Shown piece after piece: positions 5,400 to 62,366 of a stretch of 64,000 nucleotides of DNA. Position numbers and translations under genes: made by a program. The DNA comes from an uncultured archaeon (lineage in GTDB: Archaea; Aenigmatarchaeota; Aenigmatarchaeia; QMZP01). The notes under the pieces are model-generated. The model was not told the DNA's origin. It did no database searches and was given only the letters and a program-made list of their open reading frames with translations. The DNA lies in contig CAZCGK010000009.1 in the NCBI GenBank assembly GCA_964498245.1, positions 1,607 to 65,606 on the forward strand, written 5' to 3'. Each line of letters opens with the position of its first letter. Positions within the stretch are counted from its first letter, which is position 1.

Positions 5400-5570
5400 G
5401 CGAGGGTGCCCGAGCGGCCAAATCAAAGGCCAGAGGGGCAGGACTTAAGTTTTAGAAAAAACTTAAGTGTTGATTCGCTCAAGAAGATGAGAAATCCTGT
5501 GGCTTAGAACCCTTTCGCGAGATGCGAAAGGTGGGAAGTGCCTTCCTGGGTTCGAATCCCAGCCCTCGCA
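5400..5570 (+). tRNA. tRNA-Leu (anticodon UAA inferred), 171 nt, with a roughly 44-nt intron after position 37 and a second insertion in the variable-arm region
   Basis: The acceptor 5' arm GCGAGGG pairs with the 3' arm CCCTCGC followed by discriminator A. The T-arm is CTGGG-TTCGAAT-CCCAG. The anticodon stem is CAGGA...TCCTG, with loop CTTAAG followed by an intervening sequence. The D-loop GAGCGGCCAAA resembles class II Leu. An extra hairpin, CCTTTCGC-gagat-GCGAAAGG, sits in the variable region. Confidence 0.7.
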
Positions 5571-8183: not shown

Positions 8184-9149
8184 CTAAAGAGCTTCTATTG
8201 TTGAGGGCGGTTTTTTTGTTATGTTATAGGTGACGCTTACAATACCCGGTACCTCCTTTGTCAACCTTTCTGCCAATTTATCTAAAGTTTCATAAGGAAG
8301 TCTTGTTGGAGATGCCGTCCTTCCATCATTACTATCCCAACACCTCACCTCTAATTGCAATCCGTAATCTCGTTTTCCTTCCCTTATTCCGGTAACTCTG
8401 TCTTCGTGCAGAACAGCCAAATATTGAAATGCTTTTGTATTCGATAATTCATCTTCAACAATTTTTGTTGCTTTTCTTATAATCTCCACTTTCTCTGGTG
8501 TAACTTCCCCTATTATCCTCGCCGCTAAAGCAGGACCCGGAAAGGGCGGTCTGTTATATATTTCTTCAGGCAATCCAAGAGCCTTTGCAACTTCCCTTAT
8601 TGCCGATTTTCTGAGCTGAATTAACGGTTCTATAACTTTGTAACCATACACCTCCTCTGCATCAATCCCAAGCTGTTCAAGTACATTGTGCTGCCTTTTA
8701 ATTCCCGAAACGGTTTCCTCCACATCCGTATAATTTGTGCCTTGAAGAAGGTATTTTACACCGGTTTTTCTTACCAAAGGACCAAAAACATCCTTGTAAA
8801 ATACCTGCGTGATTGCTTCTCTCTTTTCTTCTGGATCTGTAAGACCTTTTAATCTCTCAAAGAAAACCTCCTTTGCATCTATAAGCTCCACATCCACTCC
8901 CAAATTTTTAAACAGTGAAACAATATATTCTGCTTCGCCTTCTCTCATCAAACCGTTATCAATGAAATATGTTTTGAGCCTGTTACCCAGAGCTTTATAC
9001 CCAAGCATCGTAACGGTTGAAGAATCAACACCACCCGACAGTGCACTGATGGCCAAGTCATCACCAACAATTGAAGAAATTTCTCGAACTTTCTCTTCAA
9101 TAAACCTTTCGGGATTTAATTCTCCCAGGGTTATTTCTTTAATTTTCAT
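8184..9149 (-). CDS. guaAb: GMP synthase subunit B (ATP pyrophosphatase, archaeal split form)
   Basis: Contains the PP-loop 'ISALSGGVDSSTV'. The 321-aa length and absence of a GATase domain match archaeal guaAb. Confidence 0.85.
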   Translation of the reverse strand: MKIKEITLGELNPERFIEEKVREISSIVGDDLAISALSGGVDSSTVTMLGYKALGNRLKTYFIDNGLMREGEAEYIVSLFKNLGVDVELIDAKEVFFERLKGLTDPEEKREAITQVFYKDVFGPLVRKTGVKYLLQGTNYTDVEETVSGIKRQHNVLEQLGIDAEEVYGYKVIEPLIQLRKSAIREVAKALGLPEEIYNRPPFPGPALAARIIGEVTPEKVEIIRKATKIVEDELSNTKAFQYLAVLHEDRVTGIREGKRDYGLQLEVRCWDSNDGRTASPTRLPYETLDKLAERLTKEVPGIVSVTYNITKKPPSTIEAL

Positions 9150-9245
9150 AATGATTTATTGAAGAAAAATCAGTTATTTAAATTTTTAAGCAGGTCTTAT
9201 TGAGTTAAAAGTTTTAATATCAACCTTTAATATTCGATAGATAAA

Positions 9246-9366
9246 GGGACCGTGGTGTAGTTTGATCGGTTTCGAGTTTCAGAACCGATCCTGTATTGGT
9301 CTAGCATTCGGGCTTCGGGTCTTTGGAGAAAAAGCCCGCGACCTGGGTTCAAATCCCAGCGGTCCC
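9246..9366 (+). tRNA. tRNA-Pro (anticodon CGG inferred), 121 nt, with an unusual D-loop intron plus a short anticodon-loop intron
   Basis: Acceptor GGGACCG pairs with CGGTCCC followed by A. The T-arm is CTGGG-TTCAAAT-CCCAG. The D-region GTGTAGTT...TGGTCTAGCAT is interrupted by a roughly 32-nt hairpin (gatcggtttcgagtttcagaaccgatc). The anticodon stem CGGGC/GCCCG encloses loop TTCGGG plus a roughly 13-nt insert. Confidence 0.65.
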
Positions 9367-9367
9367 A

Positions 9368-9844
9368 CTAAGCAAATGTTGCGGATATCCATATGCCGAG
9401 AACATGAGCAAGAAGTATAACCATCAGAGCTATAAGCACGTGCTCTACAACAGGTTTCCATGGATTTGTTTTCTGTTCAATTCCTATGTAGTAGCTGAAT
9501 ATGCCGAGAAAGCTCAGTCCCAGAGCTATGTTCACGGGCACGGAAATTCCGAGAGGCAGAACGAGAAGAGGAAGAATGAATATCATTGCAAATACGAATT
9601 TAGAGAGAAAAGTCGAGAACGTGGATTCCCATATTTCTCTTTCACTGTGCCTGTTTTCCGATTCTTCTGCAATATGGATGCCTAATGCATCCGAAAACGC
9701 ATCTGCAATGGCTATTGTCAGTATTCCGCCGATTACTGCAAGCCTGGAGTGCGTGCCTGATGTAAGTCCAACCATTAAACCGAGAGTTGTGATTATTGCA
9801 GAGGTCATTCCGAAGCTGATACCTGTTCTCAGAGAGCGCTTCAT
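9368..9844 (-). CDS. VIT1/CCC1 family membrane protein (short form)
   Basis: Carries the transmembrane pattern 'GISFGMTSAIITTLGLMVGLTSG...IGGILTIAIADAFSDALG' characteristic of VIT family iron/manganese transporters. Confidence 0.6.
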   Translation of the reverse strand: MKRSLRTGISFGMTSAIITTLGLMVGLTSGTHSRLAVIGGILTIAIADAFSDALGIHIAEESENRHSEREIWESTFSTFLSKFVFAMIFILPLLVLPLGISVPVNIALGLSFLGIFSYYIGIEQKTNPWKPVVEHVLIALMVILLAHVLGIWISATFA

Positions 9845-19974: not shown

Positions 19975-21297
19975 ATGGACAAAAATCAGCTGATAAGTGT
20001 TCTTGCTCCGTGGAATCTGTGGGGAAATAAGATAGATACGGGAATAAAAAGAGAGGAATATATAAAAGAAGCACGCGAGTGCTTGAAAACAAACAGCGTG
20101 TTGGCATTAATAGGTATAAGAAGATCCGGAAAAAGCTATATAACGAAACAGATTGCTTCAACTTTGACAAAGAAAAAAGAAGACTCGCTTATAGTAAATT
20201 TTGAAGAAGTGAAGCTGCAGGAGCCTGCAACCAAAGATCTTTTGGTAAAAATATATGAAGCATATCTTGAAATAGTTAAACCTACATCAAAACCGCTCAT
20301 TATACTTGATGAGGTACAGAATGTAAAAGGTTGGGAGAAATTTGTAAGAACTCTACATGAAAGAAAAGAAGCAAAAATTGTAGTAACAGGATCGAGTGCA
20401 AAGCTTATGAGTGAAGAACTTGCCACACTTCTCACAGGAAGGATTTTGTCAATAAACGTTTTTCCTTTATCCTTCAGAGAATTTCTAATATTTAAAGGGA
20501 TTAAAATTCATACAGAGCTTGATGTTCTCAGAAATGAAAGGAAAATAAAAACATTACTTCACGAATATCTCGAATTCGGAGGATTTCCAGAGGTTGTACT
20601 TACAGAAAGAAAAGACATAAAAACAAAGCTTCTTCAAACATACTATGATGATATATTGGTTAAGGATATTGTGAAAAGATATGATATTCGAAAACCGGGA
20701 AAGCTTGAAATAATAGGAAATTTCTATATAAACAATTTTTCGTCAAGAATAACGTTCAATTCAATAGCGAGGTTTACGAAACTTAATGAGAACATAGTTG
20801 AAAGGTATACAAAATATTTGGAAAATGCAAAATTATTGTTTCTTCTCAAAGCTTTCAGTCCTTCAATAAAAGAAGAGGAAAGCAATCCGAAAAAAGCCTA
20901 TATTATGGATATTGGTTTCAAAAACGTAATGAATCTCTCTCTTTCGGACAGAATAACCGCGGGATACGAAAATGTTGTCGCTGTTCATTTGTTAAAGAGG
21001 CACGGAAAAAATCTCTTTTACTGGAAAGACTATCATAACCGAGAAGTTGATTTTGTAATAAAGAAGGGAAATAAAATAGAATACCTGATTCAGGTATGTT
21101 ACAATATAAATGATGAGACCACGAGAAAAAGAGAGCTGAGGTCTTTGTTACATGCATCAAAAAATCTCAGATGCAAAAATCTGCTTGTGATCACGGATAA
21201 TTATGATGGTGAGGAAGAAGTGGAGTGGTGGGGTCTGAAAAGAAAGGTCAGATTTGTCCAACTCTGGAGATGGTTATTAACGCATGAAAACGGTTAA
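19975..21297 (+). CDS. AAA+ ATPase with C-terminal DUF4143 (restriction-endonuclease-like) domain
   Basis: Walker A 'IGIRRSGKSY' and Walker B 'LIILDEVQ' are present. Overall architecture is shared with the paralog at 35043..36317. Confidence 0.75.
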   Translation: MDKNQLISVLAPWNLWGNKIDTGIKREEYIKEARECLKTNSVLALIGIRRSGKSYITKQIASTLTKKKEDSLIVNFEEVKLQEPATKDLLVKIYEAYLEIVKPTSKPLIILDEVQNVKGWEKFVRTLHERKEAKIVVTGSSAKLMSEELATLLTGRILSINVFPLSFREFLIFKGIKIHTELDVLRNERKIKTLLHEYLEFGGFPEVVLTERKDIKTKLLQTYYDDILVKDIVKRYDIRKPGKLEIIGNFYINNFSSRITFNSIARFTKLNENIVERYTKYLENAKLLFLLKAFSPSIKEEESNPKKAYIMDIGFKNVMNLSLSDRITAGYENVVAVHLLKRHGKNLFYWKDYHNREVDFVIKKGNKIEYLIQVCYNINDETTRKRELRSLLHASKNLRCKNLLVITDNYDGEEEVEWWGLKRKVRFVQLWRWLLTHENG

Positions 21298-35042: not shown

Positions 35043-36317
35043 TCACAAATCAAGCAACCATCTCCAGAGAGGCACAAATTTTATTTTTCTTCCTTCTGAA
35101 GTTTCCTCTCCCTCATAATCCCAAGTTATAACAAGCAAATTCCTGCATTTCAGTTCCCTTCCTGCTTTGAGCAAAGCCCTGATCTCCCTTCTTTCAATCT
35201 CATCTCTACTTTCCATGCAGGTTACCTGTATAAGCTGTTTTATGTTCACTCCATTCTTAATCACAAAATCCACTTCATGTTGCCGGTAATCCTTCCAATA
35301 GTAAATCTCTTCGCTTCCGTATCTGTAACTCCTTCTTCTCATAAGCTCTACTGCCACAAGATTTTCCATAAGCCTTCCAAAATCTTCTGAAATTCTGAAG
35401 GAAATCGTATTGGCAAGCCCTGTGTCTATACAATAGAACTTCTTTGGAGATATCATCTGTTCCTTCAGCTTTGGTGAATATCTCTTCAGAACAAAACCAA
35501 GATATGCATTTTCCAGAAAACCCAGCCAGTTTCTGAGTGTATGAACATCCCTTACCTCAAGGATATTTTTTGTTTTTCTTATGCTGAATTCCTTTGCCGA
35601 GTTTGTTACAAGATATTTAATGAATTCTTTCAGGGCATCTTTTTTCTTTATTCTGATTCTTTTCAAAATATCCTTTTCTATCATATCCCCGTATATCCTC
35701 AGCAGGATTTCTCTTCCAAATCTGTTGACTTCAGGAAACCCTCCTGCTCTGATGTAATCTTTCAGCATTTTTTTAATCTCAGCTATTTTCAGGGAATAGA
35801 GTTCACCGATATCGAATTCATTGTATTTGAGAAATTCCGAAAAACTGAAAGGAAAAAGTGTAAACTGAATATGTCTTCCAGTCAGGGCAGTGGCGAGCTC
35901 TCCTGATAGCAGTTGGGAATTGCTACCAGTGATTATTAGCCTTTTGGTTCTTCTTAGCCTGTTGGCAAACAGTTCCCATCCTTTCACTCTCTGGGGTTCA
36001 TCAAGGATTATGTTTTCAACCTTTCCGTAAAGCTCGTAGAAAGCTTCAAGTATTTTGTTTAAATCTTTTGCTTCAATCTCCACAAATCTTTCATCATCGA
36101 AATTGATGTAGGCGAAGTTTTTCTGAAAAATCTGAACTGAGAGTACGGATTTTCCGCATCTCCTGACACCGAGAATTGCGAGAATGTTGGGAAAACCCAG
36201 AAATTTTCTTAATTCTTCTCTATTTACTTCCCTTTCTATGATCTTTTCTTTTTCGAATTTTTCTCCAATCTCCTCTCTCTGGGCAGTTATTATATCCTTG
36301 ATTTCATGGAGTTTCAT
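35043..36317 (-). CDS. AAA+ ATPase with C-terminal DUF4143 domain (paralog of 19975..21297)
   Basis: Walker A 'LGVRRCGKSV' and Walker B 'NIILDEPQ' are present. The C-terminal region aligns with the paralog ('...YWKDY..EVDFVIK.G...LIQV...'). Confidence 0.75.
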   Translation of the reverse strand: MKLHEIKDIITAQREEIGEKFEKEKIIEREVNREELRKFLGFPNILAILGVRRCGKSVLSVQIFQKNFAYINFDDERFVEIEAKDLNKILEAFYELYGKVENIILDEPQRVKGWELFANRLRRTKRLIITGSNSQLLSGELATALTGRHIQFTLFPFSFSEFLKYNEFDIGELYSLKIAEIKKMLKDYIRAGGFPEVNRFGREILLRIYGDMIEKDILKRIRIKKKDALKEFIKYLVTNSAKEFSIRKTKNILEVRDVHTLRNWLGFLENAYLGFVLKRYSPKLKEQMISPKKFYCIDTGLANTISFRISEDFGRLMENLVAVELMRRRSYRYGSEEIYYWKDYRQHEVDFVIKNGVNIKQLIQVTCMESRDEIERREIRALLKAGRELKCRNLLVITWDYEGEETSEGRKIKFVPLWRWLLDL

Positions 36318-45805: not shown

Positions 45806-46441
45806 CTATCCGCTCTTTTCTCCGTAGAAACCTTTCTCCCCTTCTGAGCATTTTCTATCAATTTCATTGTGGACCAGAACTATGCAGTGCGATGCAAGAT
45901 AAATTTCCGGACCCACAGAAATCCTTTCAGCACCGATGCTATCAAGAAACTTTTCTTCCTTTTGTGGAAGACCTCCATGATCTCCGAGAATAAACAATTC
46001 ATTTCCCAGAAATCTTGTATCCCTTATATCTTTTCCGTTCTGATGAAGGTAAACGAGTCTTCTTTTTTCGGCAAAATCTTTTATAAAATCCCGAAAACTT
46101 ATCCTTTCAGCATAAAATCCTTTAGAAACCCTTGTTCTGTTTTTGTTTGCAACAAGTCTAAGAGCTTCTCTTATTTTTCCAGCTATACTTCTCTCATCAT
46201 AGTAAAGTCCTTTAAGTTCAGAACCTAAGAAACTCAAAAGAACCGGCGGTCTGGGAGGCCCATTCAATGAAATATAAAGATTGCTGTCTTTTCTGAGGGA
46301 TGAAGAAAGGAAGAATGTGCTGGATACACATCTCACAATCACATCCATTCTTCCAGAACCAGAAAGGTTGTTTAATGAAAAGGGCTCTGTTACAGCCTCC
46401 TGAGCATAAAGCAAAAACTCTCTCATATGCGGATGTAACAC
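45806..46441 (-). CDS. SPOUT-class RNA methyltransferase, TrmY-like (DUF358, tRNA m1-pseudouridine54 methyltransferase family)
   Basis: 'GSGRMDVIVRCVSSTFFLS' and 'FILGDHGGL...RISVGPEIYLASHCIVLVHNEIDRK' match my recollection of the DUF358 fold and motifs. Confidence 0.5.
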   Translation of the reverse strand: MLHPHMREFLLYAQEAVTEPFSLNNLSGSGRMDVIVRCVSSTFFLSSSLRKDSNLYISLNGPPRPPVLLSFLGSELKGLYYDERSIAGKIREALRLVANKNRTRVSKGFYAERISFRDFIKDFAEKRRLVYLHQNGKDIRDTRFLGNELFILGDHGGLPQKEEKFLDSIGAERISVGPEIYLASHCIVLVHNEIDRKCSEGEKGFYGEKSG

Positions 46442-47831: not shown

Positions 47832-48506
47832 ATGAAATTTTACGATTACTTTACCCGAATAGAACGGATAAATGAAGGAATAAAAATGGCAAAAGAATTG
47901 GGCTGGAACGGAATTGTGGTTTCCATCCCCTATACCAGTGAAAACCTTGAAAAACTGAAAGCAGAAAAAACAGATTTTGATTTGATAATTGCTGCAGAAA
48001 TCGATATAGCAGGCCTGAAGAATCCGAAAAAAACCCTCAGAAAACTCCGCAGAAAATTCGAAATTCTCATAGGCAGAGGCGGAACAGCTGAAGTGAACAG
48101 AAAAATTGTAGAAATGCCGGAATTTGATATACTGGTAAACCATGTTATTGACAAGGAAAAATGCGGGATAAATCATGTTCTTGCTAGGCTGGCAAGAAAA
48201 AACAATGTTGCGATATGTTTCGATTTTCACAGCGTGCTGACTTCTTACGGAAAAACCCGTGCCAAACTGTTTTCAGCGCTTGTTGAGACAGCAAAAATTG
48301 TAAAAAAGTACAACAGTCCCTTTGTTATCTCTTCCGGAGCTATAAGCGAATGGGATCTGCGCTCTCCTCACGATCTGGGTGTCTTCGGAAAGGTTCTGGG
48401 TCTTCCGGAAGATAAGATAAAGCATTGGCTTTCTGAGAAATTGATAGAGGAAAACAGAAAAAGACTGACAGAAAAATGGATTATGCCAGGAGTGGAAATA
48501 GAATAA
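47832..48506 (+). CDS. rnp3: RNase P protein component 3 (Rpp30)
   Basis: 'GINHVLARLARKNNVAICFDF...FVISSGAISEWDLRSPHDLGVFGKVLGL' aligns with Pyrococcus Rpp30 ('[21 protein letters not shown]...RYPRDLISLGVVIGM'). Confidence 0.7.
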   Translation: MKFYDYFTRIERINEGIKMAKELGWNGIVVSIPYTSENLEKLKAEKTDFDLIIAAEIDIAGLKNPKKTLRKLRRKFEILIGRGGTAEVNRKIVEMPEFDILVNHVIDKEKCGINHVLARLARKNNVAICFDFHSVLTSYGKTRAKLFSALVETAKIVKKYNSPFVISSGAISEWDLRSPHDLGVFGKVLGLPEDKIKHWLSEKLIEENRKRLTEKWIMPGVEIE

Positions 48507-50289: not shown

Positions 50290-50564
50290 GCAAAGAATTT
50301 AAAGAAAGCCCCCGGTGGGACTTGAACTAAAGTTCGGATCTCCTCTTTCAGCCTTTAAAAAATTATTCATAAATTATCACTTTCTTATCTTCTAATTCAA
50401 TATTAACTATATCCCCCTTTTTGATTTTGAGTTGTTTAATGATTTCTTCAGGAATACAAACATATAAGGAGTTTCCAGATTTCATCACTTTTCTTTTAAA
50501 AATTACACCCATATTAAATCTATACTGTGTATATGTTTATAAAACTTTCGGTCTATTTTATAAT

Positions 50565-51383
50565 ATGAATTACAACCAAAAAGTAAAGAAAGAATTCATA
50601 AAATATTTATACAGGAGAAATTTGTCAGAGGGGAGAATAAGGAAATATATGCTGGTTTTTGATGAGATTGAAAAGCTTAAAATAAACCTAAAAAGACTCA
50701 CCAAGAACGATATAGACAAATACTTTTTCTATTTGATGAAAAGTAAATATAAGGAATGGACGATAGTAACTAAATGGAAATGCTTTAAAAGAATTTGCAA
50801 ATTTGTCAAGAACATAGATCTAAGCGAATGGTATATAAAAACTCCAAACATAGAACCGGAGATACTTTCTCTTGATGAAATAAAAGCTATTATTGAAAAT
50901 CTTAGGAATTTCAGAGATAGATTAATCGTGATGTTGTTATATGAGAGTGGTATGCGCATAAGTGAATTGCTGAATTTAAAGAAAGGGGATGTTATATTCG
51001 ATTTCTACGGAGCATTGTTAAGAGTTCATGGAAAAACAGGTGTTAGATATATAAGAGTTGTAAAAATTGCTGAATTGCTTAGAATTTATATTAATTTATC
51101 TGCATCAGAAAGATTGTTTGAAATTACTGAACGTGCAGTTTTAAAAAATATAAAAAAGGCATGTGAAAAGGCTGGAATTAAAAAGCGTGTATATCCACAC
51201 TTATTCCGTCATACGAGAGCAACACATCTTGCGAAATATCTTACTGAGTCGGAACTAAAGGCTTATTTTGGTTGGTCGAAATATTCGAATATGCCTGCTA
51301 TATATGTACACTTATCAAGTAGGGACGTTGATGAAAAGATCATTAAAACAAGTCAGATTCATGATCTACAGTTAAAAATATAA
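50565..51383 (+). CDS. int: tyrosine recombinase/integrase
   Basis: Box I 'ESGMRISELLNLKKGDV' and box II 'HLFRHTRATHL...YVHLSSRDV' (catalytic Tyr) are present. Start trimmed to the ATG at 50565, downstream of an AT-rich promoter ('tttataaaac'). Confidence 0.8.
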   Translation: MNYNQKVKKEFIKYLYRRNLSEGRIRKYMLVFDEIEKLKINLKRLTKNDIDKYFFYLMKSKYKEWTIVTKWKCFKRICKFVKNIDLSEWYIKTPNIEPEILSLDEIKAIIENLRNFRDRLIVMLLYESGMRISELLNLKKGDVIFDFYGALLRVHGKTGVRYIRVVKIAELLRIYINLSASERLFEITERAVLKNIKKACEKAGIKKRVYPHLFRHTRATHLAKYLTESELKAYFGWSKYSNMPAIYVHLSSRDVDEKIIKTSQIHDLQLKI

Positions 51384-51433
51384 AAATATAAAAGTAATAA
51401 AATAATACTTAAGGTGGCCTGAGTGGTGGGAAT

Positions 51434-51574
51434 TTGACTAAAAAATCAATACACGTTTCTCGTGAGACTTGGAAATCACTCATGAAAATCAAGTTGGAAA
51501 CGAATGCAAGTTCTTTAGATGATGTTATTCGTTTTCTAATCGAGAAGGGTGGTAAGAAATGGTTAAAGAAATGA
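51434..51574 (+). CDS. ribbon-helix-helix (CopG/Arc-like) DNA-binding protein with a TTG start
   Basis: (M)TKKSIHVSRETWKSLMKIKLETNASSLDDVIRFLIEKGGKKWLKK shows a beta-strand and two-helix RHH pattern. 46 aa, so absent from the ORF track. Confidence 0.4.
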   Translation: MTKKSIHVSRETWKSLMKIKLETNASSLDDVIRFLIEKGGKKWLKK

Positions 51575-51726
51575 ATTTAACTGATAAAATTTCGCTTGTT
51601 GTAATATATGTTATGATTGTGCTCGCATTTTTATTCGGTGAACCGTATGGTGTGAGACAGTCTTATGTGATTACAATAGCTATAATCGTGACTATGAGTA
51701 TTATTTGGTATCTCACCAAAAAATAG
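51559..51726 (+). CDS. small membrane protein (55 aa), overlapping the RHH gene
   Basis: MVKEMNLTDKISLVVIYVMIVLAFLFGEPYGVRQSYVITIAIIVTMSIIWYLTKK has two hydrophobic helices. Confidence 0.3.
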   Translation: MVKEMNLTDKISLVVIYVMIVLAFLFGEPYGVRQSYVITIAIIVTMSIIWYLTKK

Positions 51727-52126
51727 TGATCAGGTAGGCTCCGAGAAGCAGAATGTATCCGGGAGTTTCCTCTCTTTCTTTTTTGATCAATTTTTTTGTT
51801 ATAAAAGATAGTATGAAAAGTCCTGTGAAAGCTATTAGAAACTTTATTATTTTGAAATGTTCTATCGCTCCGAAGCCGAGCAGGATCCAGACAAGAGCTT
51901 GTAAATCACCGGTGGCCATGAATTTTTTTGTTAAGAGTATTACAATAATAGTGAGAAAAATCAGTATGAAAACTAAAATTATATTTATTTTAAAGTACCC
52001 TAAAAGCATCATTGTTGCTCCAAACATGAAATAGTTGTATCGTTCATCTATTTCTCTCGTTCTGATGTCTCTGAAAGTGTTGTAAATGAGCATGAGTATA
52101 GAGAGAAAGTAATATATTGTGATCAT
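51713..52126 (-). CDS. element membrane protein
   Basis: 137 aa with four transmembrane helices. Confidence 0.4.
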   Translation of the reverse strand: MITIYYFLSILMLIYNTFRDIRTREIDERYNYFMFGATMMLLGYFKINIILVFILIFLTIIVILLTKKFMATGDLQALVWILLGFGAIEHFKIIKFLIAFTGLFILSFITKKLIKKEREETPGYILLLGAYLITIFW

Positions 52127-52569
52127 TCTGTCAACCCTTTCAAAATCTCTCTTGATTTAACTATAAGCTCGCTCATTATTGCTTCTACAAAGATTTCGTT
52201 AATCTTGATAACAAAATTTTCAACATCTTCAACAAGCGGAACAAAAGAATCTGATTTGTCTTTTGGAATTATTTTTTCATAGTATTTCTTTATCTCTTTC
52301 TTATAAGTTTTGAATTCTTTTATTTGTTTTGTAAGTGCGTTGAATCGTACATAAACTTTAAATATGATTGATCTAAGTTGATTTATTGTTTCCATCAAAC
52401 TTTTCTTCTCCGAATCTTCTATATCATATTTTTGCAAACTTTCTTCTGTGTATTTGTTTTTGAGATGAACATAAAGATTTATGTAAGATGAAGCGTAAGC
52501 TATGAGAAACTCTATATCTGAAAGGAATGTAAGCAAGTAACTTGCTCCTGCGACTTTTTCTTCTTGCAT
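52123..52569 (-). CDS. element hypothetical protein
   Basis: 148 aa, helical and charged. Overlaps its neighbours by 4 nt in the translationally coupled array. Confidence 0.4.
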   Translation of the reverse strand: MQEEKVAGASYLLTFLSDIEFLIAYASSYINLYVHLKNKYTEESLQKYDIEDSEKKSLMETINQLRSIIFKVYVRFNALTKQIKEFKTYKKEIKKYYEKIIPKDKSDSFVPLVEDVENFVIKINEIFVEAIMSELIVKSREILKGLTE

Positions 52570-52572
52570 ACT

Positions 52573-53394
52573 TCACCTCGTCTGCACAGCTGTTTTAACA
52601 GTTTCTTGCGTTGCCGAAATTGCAGGTCTAAGTGTTTCTGATATGATTGGTAAAAATGTCATAGCGAGTAATACGAAAACAACTATTAATACAAGCCAGA
52701 ACCACCACGAGGATAAGAATCCAAATGGTTTTTTCGGTTTTGTCATTTCTACGACATGTCGTGCGAAGTCTCTCATTATGCTTGTGAGTTCTTCTGTTTT
52801 CTTTTTCAAATATAAAACAAGATGTTTTATCATAGCATCTTCTTCAAGTTTAGCGAGAGCATCTTTAGTTAAGAATGCATCCATGCTTTTATTATAGATC
52901 AGAACCGGAAAATGTTCGAAAGCGAATGTTATTTTATTAGTATCTTCTTTTTTGTATCTAAGTATGTAATAATCATAATCTTCACTGAATTTTTCTTTAA
53001 GTTTTTCTTTGGCTTCTTCTTTACTGAGTTTTGTTATTGTCGCTTCTTTTGGTTTTTTCATATAAAAAACACTTTTTCTGTCAAATAGTGATGTCGTTTT
53101 GTATTTATCTGAATCAATAAAGGGTAGTCTTACTTTTGCTATGAATGGTTCAATGAGGCCAGAACTATCGAATGTGAATGCGAGAAGTCCTTCTCCTTCG
53201 AGAAACTGTAGTACCGGATGTCTCACTATCATATTAAATAAAAATATTGAAAGAACCATTGTGATTAACCATGCAACTATAGCGAATATCAGACCGTATC
53301 CGAACAGAATAAACATAAAAAACATAAGCGTAGGCATAAATCCAACTAAGAACAGTGCAGCCCATTTCTTTATTTTAAACATATTAAGTTTCAT
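52573..53394 (-). CDS. element membrane protein
   Basis: 273 aa with an N-terminal two-helix transmembrane region and a C-terminal transmembrane segment. Confidence 0.45.
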   Translation of the reverse strand: MKLNMFKIKKWAALFLVGFMPTLMFFMFILFGYGLIFAIVAWLITMVLSIFLFNMIVRHPVLQFLEGEGLLAFTFDSSGLIEPFIAKVRLPFIDSDKYKTTSLFDRKSVFYMKKPKEATITKLSKEEAKEKLKEKFSEDYDYYILRYKKEDTNKITFAFEHFPVLIYNKSMDAFLTKDALAKLEEDAMIKHLVLYLKKKTEELTSIMRDFARHVVEMTKPKKPFGFLSSWWFWLVLIVVFVLLAMTFLPIISETLRPAISATQETVKTAVQTR

Positions 53395-53395
53395 G

Positions 53396-53941
53396 CTATC
53401 TCCTCAAGCTAATAAATGTTTTTTGTTCGGGCGGTTTCTCCAGAGAGGGAACGAGGGTATATGGATAGTCGTATTGATATTCGAATCTTGATTTTGAAAG
53501 ACTATCAAAAGCAAATGCTTCAAGGCCAAGCGTGCTGCGTGAAAGAAATAGAAAGACGTCAACACTAAACTTCACGTCGTGCAACATCATCTTTTTGATC
53601 TGGTCGAGTATTTCTTTTATCTCTTGTTTGTATTTTTTGAAATTGAATTTTTCGAGTTGTTGTTCATAATCATAGAGAAACTCTGCTAATTTTGTGAGAT
53701 CACGAACCCATGTGAAGTATTTTCCAAGCAAATAGCGATCATACTCTTGCAAATTTGTGAGCTTGAGTTCAATATTTGTGAGCATATAAAGAAGTTCTAA
53801 GAGTTCTTCACGTGTGAGATCATCTTTTTTGATAAGTTCTCGGAGCCTTTCGGCTTCTCTCCTACCGAGAAGCTTGTCTATAAAAGTCTTCTCTGTTTGT
53901 TGAGCATGTAACTTTTGTGATAGAAGTTTCTCAAATTGCAT
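53396..53941 (-). CDS. element hypothetical protein
   Basis: 181 aa, helical. Confidence 0.4.
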   Translation of the reverse strand: MQFEKLLSQKLHAQQTEKTFIDKLLGRREAERLRELIKKDDLTREELLELLYMLTNIELKLTNLQEYDRYLLGKYFTWVRDLTKLAEFLYDYEQQLEKFNFKKYKQEIKEILDQIKKMMLHDVKFSVDVFLFLSRSTLGLEAFAFDSLSKSRFEYQYDYPYTLVPSLEKPPEQKTFISLRR

Positions 53942-54176
53942 ATTTGTTCCTCAGATAATTTATTTCTTGATTCGTCCTGTAGAGATAGTATGCACCCACT
54001 ATAAGTGCAACTGTAACAATATAAAAACCAAATTGCAAGAACTCTGTTGCATAAGATAAGAATGAGAAAACAATTATCATAATTGCAAGCAGTCTGATTG
54101 TATAGAGTTTTTTAAGCACCTCTGCTGCTGCTACAGTCTTTGTAATCATTTCATTCTGTTTTTTCATAGAGATCAC
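53931..54176 (-). CDS. element small membrane protein
   Basis: 81 aa with two transmembrane helices. Confidence 0.35.
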   Translation of the reverse strand: MISMKKQNEMITKTVAAAEVLKKLYTIRLLAIMIIVFSFLSYATEFLQFGFYIVTVALIVGAYYLYRTNQEINYLRNKYAI

Positions 54177-54333
54177 ATAAATAGTTTAAAACTTCATCGA
54201 GGGAACGTGCTTTTATTTTTAATTTGATTTTCATAAGACGTTCCCATGTGGTCTCTCTAACATTAAGTGTTTTTTTCATACTTTTATATTTTAGTAAAAA
54301 AGTATTTAAATATTTTTATAGAAATATAAAAAT

Positions 54334-54729
54334 ATGAAGATATTTGGAAAAAGGTTCTTTGAATTCGTTTTCAGTAAATTAGGTAGTAATCTCAATAAAA
54401 AAATTGATATATGTTTTGATATCGAAGTTTATGGTGATTCTTTCAAAGTAGAATTGTTTTATGAATTGCCAAAGACATGGTATTTACAAGCACTTAGATA
54501 TACCCTCAAGAAAGATGTTAATTTACCGGACACATTTAGAACTGATAAAAGAGCATTTTCTTTTGCAACACCAAGGTTGAAAAGCACATTAAAAAAGATT
54601 GAAAAGGATGTACAAAGAGATCTAAAAGCATTCAGAATTGTGACATACAAAATTAAAGATATGTTGTTTGTTGTTAAAGATAATGTTGTTGAAACAAAAA
54701 TAATTGTTGAGGGATTATGCGTGAGTTGA
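54334..54729 (+). CDS. element hypothetical protein
   Basis: 131-aa ORF on the opposite strand to the main array. Confidence 0.35.
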   Translation: MKIFGKRFFEFVFSKLGSNLNKKIDICFDIEVYGDSFKVELFYELPKTWYLQALRYTLKKDVNLPDTFRTDKRAFSFATPRLKSTLKKIEKDVQRDLKAFRIVTYKIKDMLFVVKDNVVETKIIVEGLCVS

Positions 54730-54959
54730 TATTTTATGTTTCTGTTGTAAACCAGAATGAAAAACCTGTTCTCTATATTCGCAAAGTTACATCTGATCGT
54801 AATTTTATGATTGATTTGATAAATACTCTTGTTAAGAATGAAGAATATGTGTTTCGAGGAAGATTGAAATTTAGAAATAGACTTTCAGCTATTGTAACAC
54901 TTAAAAAAATGCTCGGTTTTTTGTGAGTTATCCGTAATTTGTCACTGAAGATCTTGGAA

Positions 54960-55056
54960 GTATGGATAACTAAAAATAAAAAATAAAGAAAAAACTAAGA
55001 AAATGCTATGTTGGGTGCTGTTGTTTCTGTGCTGCTAAGTGCTTTACAGAGCACTT
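54960..55056 (-). terminator. hairpin plus oligo-T terminator after the capsid-like gene
   Basis: On the minus strand, the hairpin 'aagtgctctgtaaagcactt' is followed by 'ttttttctttattttttattttt'. Confidence 0.45.
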
Positions 55057-55388
55057 CCGTAGTAGCCGTAGCTTGTTGATCTTCCAAGTCCCATGATAAG
55101 CCCAAGAACCACGAAGATTATCACTGCCAAAACAACAATCGGTAGATAGTTACCTGTGGTCTTCAGGGCTTTGAACCCAGAAGTTATGCTGTCCTTGACA
55201 TATGTCTGTATTGTTGTATCGTTTATTGCATTTATGTCTGTCTCGACCTGACTGTATACCTGTCCACCGAGTGTGCCGACGAAAATCAAAACGAGTGTCG
55301 CCACACCGACGCCCATGATCAAAAGTATTACTGCACCGGTTTGCTCCTGAACTGCTCCTCTCTTTTTATAAACAAGTTTTGTGTTCAT
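55044..55388 (-). CDS. small two-helix hydrophobic protein; candidate major capsid protein of a spindle-shaped virus
   Basis: The 114-aa protein has two hydrophobic segments (VILLIMGVGVATLVLIFVGTL; LPIVVLAVIIFVVLGLIMGL). It is followed by a strong hairpin plus oligo-T terminator. Confidence 0.4.
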   Translation of the reverse strand: MNTKLVYKKRGAVQEQTGAVILLIMGVGVATLVLIFVGTLGGQVYSQVETDINAINDTTIQTYVKDSITSGFKALKTTGNYLPIVVLAVIIFVVLGLIMGLGRSTSYGYYGSAL

Positions 55389-55436
55389 GTTAAAGAAATA
55401 GAATTGCTTTTTTATAAAAATAGTAGAAATGCCATT

Positions 55437-55766
55437 TTATATTTTTACTTTTTTATATTTTTTGAATGGATGTTTTGAGAGATGTAGCATGATTTCTATT
55501 ATTGTGAATATCACAACAAGAGAGAATAAGAATGTGTTTATGTTATGCAGAAATGCAAACATTCTGATTATATTTTTCGCTGAATCTAAAGAGAATGATA
55601 GAGTTGCGAGCGTTATGAGAAACGAGAAGAATGAGAGAATCAAAGTTATGAAAGATGCTTTTATGTCAAATGTTTTCACGAAGCTCATTAGATTGTAGAG
55701 CTTAGATAGAAATATACATAAATTGATTGTGAAAAACATCAGTCCGAGTAATTCTATTATATTCAC
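55437..55766 (-). CDS. element membrane protein
   Basis: 109 aa with three transmembrane helices. Confidence 0.35.
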   Translation of the reverse strand: MNIIELLGLMFFTINLCIFLSKLYNLMSFVKTFDIKASFITLILSFFSFLITLATLSFSLDSAKNIIRMFAFLHNINTFLFSLVVIFTIIEIMLHLSKHPFKKYKKVKI

Positions 55767-56044
55767 ACTATCACCGACTGTGTTTTCTTGTAGCTTATGA
55801 GTAACGATATAGTTAGTATGACGAATGATGCAAGTATCATTATAATGTGATACATCGTGTTGAATCCAAGAGCATAAAATATCATAAATTCGATTGACGT
55901 CATGAAGAATAGCAAAAGTAAACCTAATCTAAATTCTTTTGCCATGAAAATTATACTTGAGAGAACTGTAACTATAAGTATGAACACTTCATTTGTTACT
56001 CCGAGATTACTCGTCAATTCTGTGAGTATTTCGAACATACTCAT
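55763..56044 (-). CDS. element membrane protein
   Basis: 93 aa with three transmembrane helices. Overlaps its neighbour by 4 nt. Confidence 0.35.
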   Translation of the reverse strand: MSMFEILTELTSNLGVTNEVFILIVTVLSSIIFMAKEFRLGLLLLFFMTSIEFMIFYALGFNTMYHIIMILASFVILTISLLISYKKTQSVIV

Positions 56045-56493
56045 ACTATCGAACCTCTACTTCTTATATTCAGTATGAAAGCCAACAAATTCATGAAGTA
56101 AAGTATTGATATAGCACTAAACACGAATAACTTGAGCTGTGCTGATAAAAAAGCATCAAGATTGAAAAACATCAAAAAGAAATTTGTGAGTATACTAAAC
56201 ATGCTCGGAATTGCGAAGAAGAAGTTAAGCATGAGATCTATAATGATATTACCGGAATAGAATACCAAGGCACCCAAATCAATAAGTGGAATGTTCATCT
56301 GTTGTTGTGTTGTTGATTCTATCTGAGATGTTATATCTGTTATATCTGTTGTAATATTCTGCATCTCTGTGAAGTAGATGTTGTTTACATTGTAAAGAGA
56401 GAAAGCATGAGTTAGCGTTGTAACTCCGAAACTGTAGAATAATTGAATTATTATGATCCATACGAAATATTTGTATGCTGACATTTTCACCAC
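56041..56493 (-). CDS. element membrane protein
   Basis: 150 aa with multiple transmembrane helices. Confidence 0.35.
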   Translation of the reverse strand: MVKMSAYKYFVWIIIIQLFYSFGVTTLTHAFSLYNVNNIYFTEMQNITTDITDITSQIESTTQQQMNIPLIDLGALVFYSGNIIIDLMLNFFFAIPSMFSILTNFFLMFFNLDAFLSAQLKLFVFSAISILYFMNLLAFILNIRSRGSIV

Positions 56494-56531
56494 TACTATT
56501 TTATATTTTTACTATTTTATATTTTAACATT

Positions 56532-59387
56532 TTATGTTATTTTCGAATATTCTTCTTTATAGACGAGTAATACGAATATGAGCATAATGATGATTATTGT
56601 TTGTATAAACACGATTTGTGTCGTCGCTGGTGCAAGTGTTGTTATTGCTAAAGCGATTATTAAAGTGATTATACCGAAAAAACCAAAGATGTGTCTTACA
56701 GCTACGAATGTTAAACCGAAAAATATTAGAGTTGCTGATATAAATATTGCGAGCCATGTGTCTATAAGTCCGATCGCTCCGGACAATGTGAATATTCTCA
56801 CTATTTCTGATTGAGATGTCTGCGTGTATTTCTTTACTACAAGCTTTAGTATGTTGTTCTGAATACTTATGCTTGAGTAATCGAAGTAAATCGTAAATTC
56901 GTTTGGTGTTTCTGTTTCAGTATGAGAAAATAGAACTGTGTCCCCGTCATAGATATAGATTTCTGTTTTTGTATTCTCATTTTCTAAGTTTTTATAGTAA
57001 ATTTTCAGTGTTGTATTAGATATTTTGCTTACGCTTATATCGTCAGTTGTAAGTGTGAAGGTGTAAGTCTTTTTTGTTGATTCTAAAACGTCGAGATTAA
57101 CTGATGTTGCTACTGATCCGTCAAGCGTTGCTAAAAATACTTTCTGATCGTTTTCGTAAGTGTAGAGATAATAGAGAGCTTTGATTGTATATGCCTTTGC
57201 CATGAGTGCATCTTGATATGCGTATTTTGTATAATCTGCGAGGACATAGCACTGAGCGAGATTGTTTTTAACTGCTATCGGTTTGTTTGTGCTGGAGTAA
57301 AAAACTATTTCATAGAATTGTTGTGTCTTTGCTACACACGCTCTTGTTGTTGTATCTATTAATTCGAGATTTAAATCAATATATAGTAAGCTGTTAGGAT
57401 CAGTATTATAACGTTTTTCTATGCGAATTACATCACTTTGATTTGAAATAAAGAGTATAGATGTGTCATTGTTTTCTAAGAAGTTGAAAATCTCTTGTGT
57501 TTTCTCACTAATTGCTCTGAGTGTGTTCATATCTGAGAATGAATTGAAAACACTACCGTCATCTTCGTTGATCAGAGTTATATTTTTCTTGTAGATGTAT
57601 ATCTTGTTGCTGCTTGAATCTTGATTGTTTACAATATCGTGACATGTTACACTAAACGAGTTCGTTCCGTCACTGAGTGTGAAGCTATAAACCGTATAAT
57701 TATTTGCGAATAAATATGAATATTTATTTGTATTTATTGTTATATTACATTCTTGCACTGGACTCACTGAATCGCTTACAGAGATATTTATGTATTCAGT
57801 TGCGTTATTGCGAAAACCGTAATTGAAATTATAAGAAATAATTATTTGTGGTGGATTGATATCGCTTATATATGTAAAGTTTTTGCTTTCTATAATGTCG
57901 GGATCTTTAAACAAAAATACAATGGCTGTTAATTCTGTGTCTATGTTATTTGTGTAAATGGTGCTGAATTGATAAGTTATATTGTTGCATTGTATTATTG
58001 TTTCGTTGTAATATTGTGTATTTGCATAATCATCTATTCTTACAATAACACTGATTGAGTTATTTAATAATCCACACCGTGCTGAATAATTTATGTTTAT
58101 TGTATGTGCATAATTTATATTGTTATAAGTTGTGTAATTTGAGAATGTAACAATAAGTGTATATAAATCTGTTGTAAAGAAAACTGTTTCAGATGATGTT
58201 TTACTTTCGCTATCTGTTGCATATATTGTTAAATTGTTGAGTGTTTCACTCTCTACTGTTATGTTCATTTCTATTGTTGTGTCATTGTAATAACTGTTAT
58301 TTTCGTATATTTTTTGCCCATTGAGATATATTGTAACATTTAAGGTTGTTGAATTATCATCTGAAACTATGAAGTTTAGAAAAATATTGCTTGTATAGTA
58401 AGTTGTATTTGACGGTGAGTAAATTATTATCGATGGTGGATTGGTTTCTGCTGTTTCCTCCGCTCCAAAACTGTATGTCGGTTCTGGGTCGTGGTATTTT
58501 CTTATAAAAAACCAATCTGTATATGATATACAATCATATGATGGTCTATATCGAATCATATCTCCTATGTTTTCTCCAGACACTGTTTGCTCGAAAACAA
58601 AATCTCCATTATCGAGGTCTGCGATGAGATATGTCGTGTTCGGAGTTATTGCTGTATATTCGTGAAACTCCGTTGTATCGAATACATATGTTGATGAATA
58701 ATAATAATTATTTGTTCCTCCGTATCTGTCGCTAATTCTTATATAATCGTTTATTCCATCAAACATTATTTGATCATGATTATCTATATCTTCGTATCTT
58801 ACATCAACTTGTGTTTGTGCATTTGTTGATGTGTTAACTTTCCAATGCACCGCAATTGAGTCAGTTGTTGTATATGATACTGAAAGGACTCCCCAAGATG
58901 TTGTATCCGTTCTTTGTAAATACCCATCTGCCTCTGTATATGTGCCTGACTCTACAGTCCATTTGCTTGTATTGAAATCTTCATCATCGAAATCATCTGC
59001 AAACAAAAAAGTTGAATCTATATCACTTTCATTCGCCGCTCCCGAATTCCCGTAATACATGCAGATTGTGCTGTTTATCGTGGGAACTTTAACCCAAACT
59101 TCAGCATACTGCCCGTCAACTTTGTTTTCAATCCAGTAGGGAATTTCGTAAGCATCGTCTGAACAGTTGTTCGTGAATCTCAAATCGTCGAAATCAGATT
59201 GCATTCCAGACTCGTATGTAACATTAAGCAAAACCTGATAATCTGTCAAGCTTGAGCCATCAGGAACGGTTATTTCTATCTGCTTCCTGTACTGCCAATC
59301 GGTATTCCACCAAACAGCGTATGCAGAGTTTATAGTAAGAAGTAAGAAAATCATCAAACTTAACGTTATTATCGTTTTTCGTATCAT
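56532..59387 (-). CDS. large secreted and membrane-anchored protein with an N-terminal DUF2341-like (concanavalin/LamG-like) domain; putative virion adhesin
   Basis: Signal peptide 'MIRKTIITLSLMIFLLLTINSAYA', then 'VWWNTDWQYRKQIEIT...DLRF...YWIE...VWVKVP...YYGN', the DUF2341 hallmark. The body is N/T/S/Y-rich and ends in a C-terminal cluster of three or four transmembrane helices. 951 aa. Confidence 0.6.
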   Translation of the reverse strand: MIRKTIITLSLMIFLLLTINSAYAVWWNTDWQYRKQIEITVPDGSSLTDYQVLLNVTYESGMQSDFDDLRFTNNCSDDAYEIPYWIENKVDGQYAEVWVKVPTINSTICMYYGNSGAANESDIDSTFLFADDFDDEDFNTSKWTVESGTYTEADGYLQRTDTTSWGVLSVSYTTTDSIAVHWKVNTSTNAQTQVDVRYEDIDNHDQIMFDGINDYIRISDRYGGTNNYYYSSTYVFDTTEFHEYTAITPNTTYLIADLDNGDFVFEQTVSGENIGDMIRYRPSYDCISYTDWFFIRKYHDPEPTYSFGAEETAETNPPSIIIYSPSNTTYYTSNIFLNFIVSDDNSTTLNVTIYLNGQKIYENNSYYNDTTIEMNITVESETLNNLTIYATDSESKTSSETVFFTTDLYTLIVTFSNYTTYNNINYAHTININYSARCGLLNNSISVIVRIDDYANTQYYNETIIQCNNITYQFSTIYTNNIDTELTAIVFLFKDPDIIESKNFTYISDINPPQIIISYNFNYGFRNNATEYINISVSDSVSPVQECNITINTNKYSYLFANNYTVYSFTLSDGTNSFSVTCHDIVNNQDSSSNKIYIYKKNITLINEDDGSVFNSFSDMNTLRAISEKTQEIFNFLENNDTSILFISNQSDVIRIEKRYNTDPNSLLYIDLNLELIDTTTRACVAKTQQFYEIVFYSSTNKPIAVKNNLAQCYVLADYTKYAYQDALMAKAYTIKALYYLYTYENDQKVFLATLDGSVATSVNLDVLESTKKTYTFTLTTDDISVSKISNTTLKIYYKNLENENTKTEIYIYDGDTVLFSHTETETPNEFTIYFDYSSISIQNNILKLVVKKYTQTSQSEIVRIFTLSGAIGLIDTWLAIFISATLIFFGLTFVAVRHIFGFFGIITLIIALAITTLAPATTQIVFIQTIIIIMLIFVLLVYKEEYSKIT

Positions 59388-59556
59388 TCATCAGTCACCA
59401 CACTTGTTTTGTTTCATTACCTGCAATCTTTCTTCGTGTTGCTTTACGTCATCCTCTCTCCATCCTTTTATGACTTCCAATATTCTCTCAAATAACTCTG
59501 TTTGTTTCCGAAGTTCCTTCAATATCGCTTTTAATAATATTTGTGTTGTCATACTA

Positions 59557-59760
59557 TCATGTGCTTATATTCGAGTTTTTCAACGCTTCTGATGTCTTTT
59601 CACACTGTTTTCCATTTATTTTCATATAGATCGGTGCTATTTCGAGTTTGTAATAATCGTAAAAATCTACTTCCTTACCACATCTCATGCAAACATAATC
59701 TATTCCGTTCATGTCTTTCGGAATAAAAACATGTTTGCATTTTCTTTGCATAACTATCAC
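59557..59760 (-). CDS. small zinc-finger protein
   Basis: 67 aa with 'CKHVFIPKDMNGIDYVCMRCGKEV'. Confidence 0.35.
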   Translation of the reverse strand: MIVMQRKCKHVFIPKDMNGIDYVCMRCGKEVDFYDYYKLEIAPIYMKINGKQCEKTSEALKNSNIST

Positions 59761-60104
59761 CTTATTTCGCTTTCAACTATTGTTCTTGTTCGCATGAACA
59801 AAATAAACAAAATTATGATTAGTATGATTAACCATGAATATTGATAAAAAAATGAAAGTGCTGATATTTGTTGAGATGTGCTCGTTCTTGCAGCTTCTAT
59901 ACTTTCGTTTGCTACAGCAGGTAAAGTGCTTGTATTTATTGAATTAAGAATATCGTTGCCTGCTGAATAAAATTGTGTATTAAATTCTATTAAGATTGGA
60001 ACTGCGAAACCGAACAGAAAGAGAAGAAGAACACTCATGATAATAAAAACTAACCACATTCCTACTACTCCTTTTCTGTTTCTTATTTTTTGTTTCATAT
60101 TCAC
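59757..60104 (-). CDS. element membrane protein
   Basis: 115 aa with an N-terminal transmembrane segment and an internal transmembrane helix. Confidence 0.35.
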
Positions 60105-61375: not shown

Positions 61376-61379
61376 TCTT

Positions 61380-61922
61380 TCACCCGAACATCGATTTTAT
61401 TACATCGAAAGCTGTAGGTGGTTTTTTCTTATTTTTAAGAGATCTTGTAGGTCTCATCGCTACTCCCCCCGATATGGCCACTCCCGGTGGTTTTGCTCGA
61501 CCCTTCTCAAATTTTGGAACATAACCTTCAGCTTGGTTAATTCTTAGCTCGATTAATGCAACGAGCTTAGGATCTAAGCCACGAGAAATTATATAAGCAC
61601 GTAGTCGCTCAAGAAATTCTCTATCATTTATCTTTCCTTGAGCGTTTGCAAGCGTGAGTTTTTCTATGTATTGGATATCATCAAGTAAATGTGGAGCGTA
61701 CTTTCTTGCAAGTAATTTCAAAATTCTGAAACGGCCTCGTAGTTCTTTTATTGTTGCTGGATCATATTTCTGTGGTGTTCTTGTAAGAAGTTGTCCATTT
61801 ATTTCATCATATGCTGTTGCATATAAATTTGTTAATAATTCCCAATCTTCATTTACTTTACCATGTGTTGGGATCCCAGCAACGCTTCTACCTACACCCA
61901 TATAAATATTTTTCTTCTTCAC
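61380..61922 (-). CDS. element hypothetical protein
   Basis: 180-aa basic protein. Confidence 0.4.
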
Positions 61923-61955
61923 AGTATAAAATAGTAATTTAGTATTTTTATAAAT

Positions 61956-62366
61956 TTATGAAATGGCACTTTCCTCTTTTTCTGATTCAGCATTTTTTGT
62001 TTTTCTAAAGACAATTGAAATATTTATCTTTCTTGTTCTCGAGTCGAGTAGTTCTGCGACTTTTTTTATTTCTTTAAGTAACTGATCCGTCTTATCTGCA
62101 TGCTTATTCTTTATTTTCTTTCTAAAGTCGACGAAGTCAAAATTAAATTTTTGTCCGAGTAAAGCTTCTGCTATACGTAGCATTTGAAGATAAGAGTTAA
62201 AGCGATCTTCTGATGACTGATTCGGATTTGAATAACTCATAAGTCCTGCTTTGATGTGTTGATAGAACAAATGTATTATAGGGTCTTTAGCGAAATCTAT
62301 AATTTCTTGATATTCTCCGAGTTGTTTTTCAATTATTTCTTCATTAGATTTTGTTTTCTTTTTCAT
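61956..62366 (-). CDS. element hypothetical protein
   Basis: 136 aa, helical and charged. Overlaps the downstream ATPase gene by 4 nt. Confidence 0.35.
   Translation of the reverse strand: MKKKTKSNEEIIEKQLGEYQEIIDFAKDPIIHLFYQHIKAGLMSYSNPNQSSEDRFNSYLQMLRIAEALLGQKFNFDFVDFRKKIKNKHADKTDQLLKEIKKVAELLDSRTRKINISIVFRKTKNAESEKEESAIS

Follow-up and report, generated by a model that had tools for sequence, protein, structure and literature searches.

A tRNA-Pro(CGG) gene with putative D-loop and anticodon-loop introns in a DPANN archaeon, most likely of the Aenigmatarchaeota

The tRNA-Pro(CGG) locus

The window, by which we mean the whole 64-kb stretch of DNA analysed here, contains a 122-nt tRNA-Pro(CGG) gene with one insert in the D-loop and another in the anticodon loop. 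Its parts, with the evidence on which the principal assignments rest, are listed below.

9246-9367 (+): complete tRNA-Pro(CGG), 122 nt including discriminator A73, with no encoded CCA; Rfam RF00005, ARAGORN after in-silico splicing, and a T-arm plus acceptor scan
9246-9262 (+): exon 1, with the acceptor 5′ strand, U8 G9, the D-stem 5′ strand GUGU and D-loop nucleotides A14 G15 U16 U17
9263-9296 (+): putative intron of 34 nt in the D-loop, which it interrupts between 17 and 17a; relaxed HBh′ motif; motif scan, folds, shuffle tests and relatives
9297-9319 (+): exon 2, with the 3′ part of the D-loop (UGGUCUA), the D-stem 3′ strand GCAU, U26, the anticodon-stem 5′ strand CGGGC and loop nucleotides U32 U33 C34 G35 G36 G37
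9316-9318 (+): anticodon CGG; sequence and ARAGORN
9320-9332 (+): putative intron of 13 nt (UCUUUGGAGAAAA) in the anticodon loop, inserted at 37/38, the canonical site; relaxed hBH/BHL motif; inspection, motif scan, fold and a gap in the orthologue L005 described below
9333-9367 (+): exon 3, with A38, the anticodon-stem 3′ strand GCCCG, a 4-nt variable loop CGAC, the T arm, the acceptor 3′ strand and A73

The precursor at 9246-9367 (+) reads, with the putative introns in brackets:
GGGACCG UG GUGU AGUU[U GAUCGGUUU CGAGUUUCA GAACCGAUC CUGU AU]UGGUCUA GCAU U CGGGC UUCGGG[UCUUUGGAGAAAA]A GCCCG CGAC CUGGG UUCAAAU CCCAG CGGUCCC A

The acceptor stem (GGGACCG/CGGTCCC) consists of seven Watson-Crick pairs and is followed by discriminator A9367, and the T arm reads CTGGG-TTCAAAT-CCCAG. 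An earlier sequence-only reading of this locus had described the acceptor and T arms as intact, as indeed they are, and the anticodon arm is intact too. When run with permissive filters over 9200-9420, the RF00005 covariance model aligns globally (model positions 1-71) to 9246-9367 with a score of 32.6 bits (gathering threshold 29; E = 2.1e-5). The only large inserts in this alignment are 42 nt against 4 model positions in the D-loop and 17 nt against 4 in the anticodon loop, exactly the two loops in which that reading had placed them. Once 34 nt and 13 nt are taken out in silico, ARAGORN returns a tRNA-Pro(cgg) cloverleaf in which every stem is paired and the conserved tRNA nucleotides U8, A14, G18G19, U33, G37, the T-loop UUCAAAU and A73 are all present. 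Features typical of an archaeal tRNA-Pro are an NGG anticodon with G35 and G36, G37 (the m1G37 site), A73 and an acceptor end of G1-C72, G2-C71 and G3-C70; the sequence has each of these, and the L005 orthologue shows an uninterrupted UUCGGGA anticodon loop. The proposed identity, proline with anticodon CGG, is thus upheld by ARAGORN after splicing, by the RF00005 alignment and by the orthologue. On sequence analysis, we regard 9246-9367 as confirmed to be a real tRNA-Pro(CGG) gene that carries two short putative introns.

With two inserts separated by a 23-nt exon, the gene belongs among the multiple-intron tRNA genes. Its three exons sit together in colinear order within 122 nt, and it is neither split nor permuted. 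Rfam intron families gave no match in the tRNA-Pro region even at E ≤ 10 and the inserts are only 34 and 13 nt long, which sets them apart from group I and group II self-splicing introns, whose catalytic RNA cores extend over hundreds of nt.

Run with -i on the native sequence, ARAGORN reports a different layout, which makes 9246-9368 a type-II tRNA-Leu(CAG) interrupted by a single 28-nt intron and turns the D-loop hairpin into the anticodon arm. ARAGORN is very permissive on this sequence. In the tRNA-Leu(CAG) fold, the D stem would contain only G•U pairs and mismatches, the anticodon stem would be mismatched and the long variable region would stay unpaired. The covariance model favours the proline layout; moreover, L005 cannot fold as tRNA-Leu(CAG) and has an uninterrupted CGG anticodon arm. 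We consider the chance that the gene is a tRNA-Leu(CAG) to be negligible.

Upstream of the tRNA-Pro gene, an A/T-rich, TATA-like element, TTTTAATAT, lies at 9212-9220 (+), ~26-34 nt from the mature 5′ end, and could be an archaeal promoter. A/T-rich boxes at comparable upstream distances also precede the tRNA-Leu gene described next and the L005 gene. The octamer TTTAATAT occurs twice just upstream of tRNA-Pro, at 9213-9220 and 9226-9233, with the distal copy spaced as an archaeal TATA box would be.

A second interrupted tRNA gene and the probable host lineage

A T-arm plus acceptor scan of the window finds only two tRNA genes, the tRNA-Pro and a tRNA-Leu, both multi-intron. The latter lies 25 nt downstream of a TrpRS-like gene and comprises the following parts.

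5400-5570 (+): tRNA-Leu(UAA), 171 nt, acceptor GCGAGGG/CCCTCGC, T arm CTGGG-TTCGAAT-CCCAG; T-arm plus acceptor scan
5422-5433 (+): insert 1, 12 nt, in the D-loop, GGCC AA|A UCAAA GGCC AG|A, a loop-type motif
5450-5493 (+): insert 2, 44 nt, at 37/38, with H formed by CUUA/UGAG (4/4 pairs), h = 6 and h′ = 3, a near-canonical motif
~5510-5537 (+): insert 3, a 28-29-nt hairpin in the variable arm, boundaries uncertain

Judging from its sequence, tRNA-Leu(UAA) seems to be interrupted three times, at canonical as well as non-canonical sites. Over the whole 64-kb window, default ARAGORN and an Rfam gathering run reported no tRNA or other RNA gene, and tRNA-Leu(UAA) had no RF00005 match even in sensitive mode. 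The whole-window negatives reflect the settings of the tools rather than the absence of genes, because default ARAGORN runs without an intron search (according to its help text) and Rfam applies speed filters. For metagenome-assembled genomes (MAGs) of this lineage, tRNA counts obtained at default settings will be too low, and inferences about genome completeness and codon usage drawn from default tRNA prediction in such MAGs will be wrong.

The window comes from a metagenome assembly in ENA (contig ERZ27248349:k141_628835) and has a G+C content of 37.7%. Its gene content is archaeal and includes Cdc6/Orc1, a GMP synthase subunit B of archaeal type, RNase P p30, Pelota, RadB, RNA polymerase subunit D and an S-layer protein. 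For the phosphoglycerate mutase encoded two genes from tRNA-Pro, all named homologues carry the label Aenigmatarchaeota or Aenigmarchaeota, at no more than 65% identity, with one further homologue at 98%. The complete Aenigmatarchaeota genome CP070801.1 shares the Cdc6-apgM pair in synteny. NCBI taxonomy places Aenigmatarchaeota within the kingdom Nanobdellati, which we take to be the DPANN group. On this sequence evidence, the window most likely belongs to the DPANN archaea and, within them, to Aenigmatarchaeota. The sequence-only reading had held the intron positions to be informative about lineage, on the ground that non-canonical introns are uncommon outside Thermoproteales, Korarchaeota and some DPANN. 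It pointed in the right direction, toward the DPANN/Aenigmatarchaeota in which homologues were found, but the rarity it assumed has been overtaken: non-canonical or multiple introns also occur in Methanopyrus kandleri, Asgard archaea, Hadesarchaea and several DPANN lineages (PMC5829648, PMC4033280), and because such introns are known more widely, the lineage signal is weaker than was implied.

Neither EndA (tRNA_int_endo) nor RtcB had a Pfam match among the 30 window ORFs scanned; RtcB is present in L002-L004, three loci that bear no taxonomic label. Genes for a Methyltrn_RNA_2 (PF04013, TrmY-like) methyltransferase and for RNase P subunit p30, both concerned with tRNA maturation, lie at 45806-46441 (-) and 47832-48506 (+), respectively. 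The genes for GMP synthase subunit B and VIT1 occupy 8184-9149 (-) and 9368-9844 (-). Homologues of the first (75-79% identity) and of VIT1 (65-69%) carry labels of numerous bacterial phyla (KSB1, WOR-3, Zixibacteria, Omnitrophota, Patescibacteria) as well as archaeal ones, a mixture that suggests either wide horizontal transfer or DPANN contigs mis-binned into bacterial MAGs. Two tyrosine-recombinase (Phage_integrase) genes lie at 50421-51383 and 63492-63998, the second a weak match below the Pfam cut-off; the interval they delimit (50421-63998) holds small ORFs without Pfam matches and a 951-aa DUF2341 protein (56532-59387), and is possibly, judging from this content, an integrated virus or plasmid. 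Finally, two paralogous AAA_14 + DUF4143 ATPases are encoded 14 kb apart, at 19975-21297 (+) and 35043-36317 (-).

Splice motifs and their conservation

Archaeal tRNA introns are recognized by a bulge-helix-bulge (BHB) rule: a 4-bp central helix H, flanked by the outer helices h and h′, has a 3-nt bulge 3′ of each of its strands, and each bulge is cut after its second nucleotide. We used the motif definitions of PMC5829648 and PMC3241643. The strict form, hBHBh′, with a 4-bp H, two 3-nt bulges and both outer helices, is found at neither intron; motif scanning and inspection instead identify the D-loop intron as HBh′ and the anticodon-loop intron as hBH/BHL. The BHB motifs that the sequence-only reading had wished to see inspected at both junctions are thus present only in relaxed forms. 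A generic BHB scan of the precursor also returned many spurious candidates, and we kept only those that restored a cloverleaf as well. Brute-force deletion scans scored by ARAGORN were set aside as a splice-site test: the program accepted hundreds of alternative deletions, even truncated solutions, and therefore cannot fix splice sites.

In the D-loop intron, H is formed by G12 U13 A14 G15 (9257-9260) and C46 U47 G48 U49 (9291-9294; nucleotides numbered along the precursor), with 4/4 pairs, two of them G•U. The 5′ bulge, U16 U17|U18, leads directly into a 9-bp intron hairpin (9264-9272 with 9282-9290, nucleotides 19-27/37-45). The 3′ site, A50 U51|U52, has no closing outer helix, h amounting to only one pair. 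Excision at the HBh′ site would leave a mature D-loop of 11 nt, AGUUUGGUCUA. The insert had been estimated at roughly 32 nt, a figure that was right in location and approximate size; by the splice-motif rule, it is 34 nt. The U-run at this junction makes the cut register ambiguous by sequence alone, with the same product for all three registers. H, the UUU bulge and the hairpin all recur in the minimum-energy folds, but there the three 3′-bulge nucleotides pair with G9-U11, an extension that is not conserved: in L005, only U11-A can form. A C/D-box sRNA within the intron was considered and dropped, as 34 nt is too short and inspection revealed no box motifs.

We assessed how often such a motif arises by chance by shuffling the insert 20000 times and demanding a strict 4-bp helix, 3-nt bulges, a neighbouring helix of 9 bp or more and a remaining D-loop of 7-11 nt. 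This arrangement appeared in 16/20000 shuffles of the window insert, and for L005 a motif at the same cut site appeared in 8/20000. When the demand was relaxed to an h′ of 4 or more at any site, the frequencies were 7% for the window insert and 1.3% for L005, and conservation therefore weighs more than either sequence alone. Taken as sequence statistics, these results indicate that the D-intron motif is more than a product of chance or composition.

For the anticodon-loop intron, the anticodon stem serves as h, and H consists of U32-A, U33-A and C34-G plus a G35•A mismatch (3/4 pairs); h′ is lacking. On the 3′ side, the bulge reads AA|A38; the 5′ site, G36 G37|U, falls within the loop. In the L005 orthologue, this insert corresponds to one clean gap of 13 nt. 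The gap places the 5′ junction right behind G37, and the orthologue displays the mature loop UUCGGGA directly. The insert, estimated at roughly 13 nt after position 37, is exactly 13 nt long.

To look for relatives, the pattern of exon 2 plus exon 3 was scanned through 185,579 species-representative genomes and produced a single match, contig JAGGYQ010000060.1 of a Candidatus Aenigmatarchaeota MAG (L005). At L005 5157-5261, it encodes a tRNA-Pro(CGG) with a 30-nt insert at the same D-loop position and none in the anticodon loop. This insert reads GUAG CC|A GAUG...CAUC CUGC AA|U GGUCUA, with H formed by GUAG/CUGC, a 3-nt 5′ bulge and an adjacent hairpin; excision would leave a classic D-loop, AGCCUGGUCUA. 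Within H, the G12•U pair of the window is G12-C in L005. A second relative, L013 (JGI contig Ga0116200_10228240, 3300010332), carries the tRNA-Pro at L013 792-913 (-) beside a VIT1 protein that is 96% identical. Over 122 nt, it departs from the tRNA-Pro gene of the window at only two sites, and both fall in the apical loop of the D-intron hairpin.

Outside the inserts, the tRNA-Pro genes of the window and L005 are identical apart from acceptor pairs 4-69, 5-68 and 6-67, positions 16-17 and position 26, the last being the sole difference in exon 2. Each acceptor difference is compensatory, one replacing A-U by G-C and two replacing C-G by U-A, which argues for selection for pairing, and in the three-sequence alignment of the window, L005 and L013, 85 of 85 pair cells hold standard pairs. 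The D introns of the window and L005 are mostly different in sequence and share GAU...GAAC...AUCCUG near their ends; given these shared elements, both probably descend from one ancestral intron. Across the two relatives (n = 2, L005 and L013), the position and motif of the intron are kept while its sequence diverges.

These comparisons bear on two other explanations of the locus. The first holds that the gene is a tRNA-Pro pseudogene, once functional, whose two insertions are never removed. In its favour, the gene goes unreported by default tRNA finders and by the Rfam gathering run, and both of its splice motifs are relaxed rather than strict. Nevertheless, the exon stems are perfectly paired and the conserved nucleotides intact, the acceptor stem has changed in compensatory fashion, insert position and motif persist in a divergent genome while the insert itself drifts, and the close strain varies only in a hairpin loop. 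We find a pseudogene improbable. The second explanation accepts only the 37/38 insert as an intron and has the D-loop hairpin either retained as an expansion or removed by some other nuclease pathway. The D junction indeed lacks the outer helix of the strict motif, and the lowest-energy fold has one bulge, not two. However, a retained 45-nt D-loop would block the contacts of G18/G19 with the T-loop, tertiary interactions on which all elongator tRNAs rely. Moreover, a 4-bp helix, 3-nt bulge and adjacent hairpin occur where the HBh′ rule demands them in two lineages, and EndA is known to cleave HBh′ D-loop introns (PMC5829648, PMC3241643). Retention of the hairpin, or its removal by another route, strikes us as very improbable.

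Synteny was followed through three neighbouring genes. A tRNA-Pro lies beside guaA in 0 of 7 related loci (L002-L004 and L006-L009); the Cdc6-apgM pair is conserved in Aenigmatarchaeota loci L010-L012 with no tRNA nearby; and the VIT1 family is spread over archaea and bacteria, with only the near-identical strain L013 useful among its loci. Exon-pattern scans of a metagenome contig collection, which is incomplete, and of a viral contig collection gave no matches. The exact 26-mer GCCCGCGACCTGGGTTCAAATCCCAG is present in L013 and yet had no match in the metagenome collection, which must therefore lack some JGI contigs, making its negatives weak.

Proposed splicing, known systems and significance

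We propose that the locus encodes a functional tRNA-Pro(CGG) of a DPANN archaeon, probably one of the Aenigmatarchaeota, whose 122-nt precursor body contains two protein-spliced introns, a reading to which we assign a probability of roughly 0.88 on the evidence of sequence. In this model, the D-stem 5′ strand and A14-G15 would pair with the 3′ end of the intron beside the 9-bp intron hairpin, creating the relaxed HBh′ structure at which EndA would cut out the 34-nt D-loop intron (17/17a). EndA would likewise excise the 13-nt 37/38 intron at a relaxed hBH/bulge-helix-loop built on the anticodon stem. A 75-nt tRNA, to which CCA would be added, would result once an RtcB-type ligase had joined the three exons, and the mature molecule would have the D-loop AGUUUGGUCUA and the anticodon loop UUCGGGA. 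That cleavage and ligation occur, and at which exact positions, we infer by analogy with characterized systems. As both introns are of relaxed form, the host EndA is presumably an enzyme of broad specificity.

The closest of these systems is the pre-tRNA-Glu(UUC) of M. kandleri, whose mature form is seen in RNA-seq and whose D-loop intron is cut efficiently only by a broad-specificity EndA (Kaneta et al. 2018, PMC5829648). Like the tRNA-Pro, it combines two introns in one gene, a relaxed HBh′ in the D-loop and another at 37/38 (PMC5829648). The M. kandleri D intron, however, sits at 20b/21, on the 3′ side of G18G19, whereas that of tRNA-Pro lies 5′ of G18G19, at 17/17a; the 37/38 intron of M. 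kandleri has a strict BHB, as opposed to a 13-nt relaxed hBH/BHL; and its host is a hyperthermophilic euryarchaeon with an (αβ)2 EndA, in contrast to a DPANN archaeon of 38% G+C. In Aeropyrum pernix, the D-loop intron of pre-tRNA-Thr2(UGU) is excised in vivo, and EndA alone suffices to remove it in vitro, although an α′2 enzyme that lacks the specificity loop hardly cuts it (Hirata et al. 2011, PMC3241643). This example shares the D-loop location with tRNA-Pro and shows that protein-only splicing is compatible with it (PMC3241643), but it involves a single intron, a canonical BHB and a crenarchaeal EndA with a Crenarchaea-specific loop.

Multiple-intron tRNAs are also described from Thermoproteales and further archaeal groups (Sugahara et al. 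2008; reviews PMC4033280, PMC4090602). In the DPANN lineage here, which represents a different phylum, the neighbouring tRNA-Leu appears to reach three introns. Position 17/17a is not among the D-arm intron sites given in the two reviews (20/21 and 22/23; PMC4033280, PMC4090602). The disrupted tRNA genes already reported from DPANN come from the same superphylum and display the same marked load of non-canonical and multiple introns and the same incomplete tRNA sets from standard predictors (PMC5829648). Known DPANN EndAs include the ε2 enzyme of ARMAN-2 and α4 enzymes with an L3 loop in Woesearchaeota, Pacearchaeota and Nanohaloarchaea; Aenigmatarchaeota is absent from the species analysed in that study, where the name appears once, in the definition of DPANN (PMC5829648).

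The layout should come as no surprise to specialists: multiple-intron tRNAs, D-loop introns and relaxed motifs have all been described before (PMC4033280, PMC4090602, PMC5829648). Its main importance is that standard tRNA finders overlook such genes. What the locus contributes is, first, that tRNA genes interrupted more than once now extend to Aenigmatarchaeota. Second, the conserved 17/17a D-loop intron and the two very short introns with relaxed motifs provide substrates for testing how DPANN splicing endonucleases recognize their targets. More speculatively, the Aenigmatarchaeota may include a lineage with a Thermoproteales-like load of tRNA introns, in which 12-13-nt bulge-helix-loop mini-introns and a vertically inherited 17/17a intron are handled by an as yet uncharacterized DPANN EndA, possibly an α4 enzyme with an L3 loop. 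We offer this broader picture tentatively and consider it doubtful. If it is true, the tRNA sets of such MAGs would be systematically under-called, and the lineage would provide a mesophilic, small-genome test case for the co-evolution of endonuclease specificity and intron spread.
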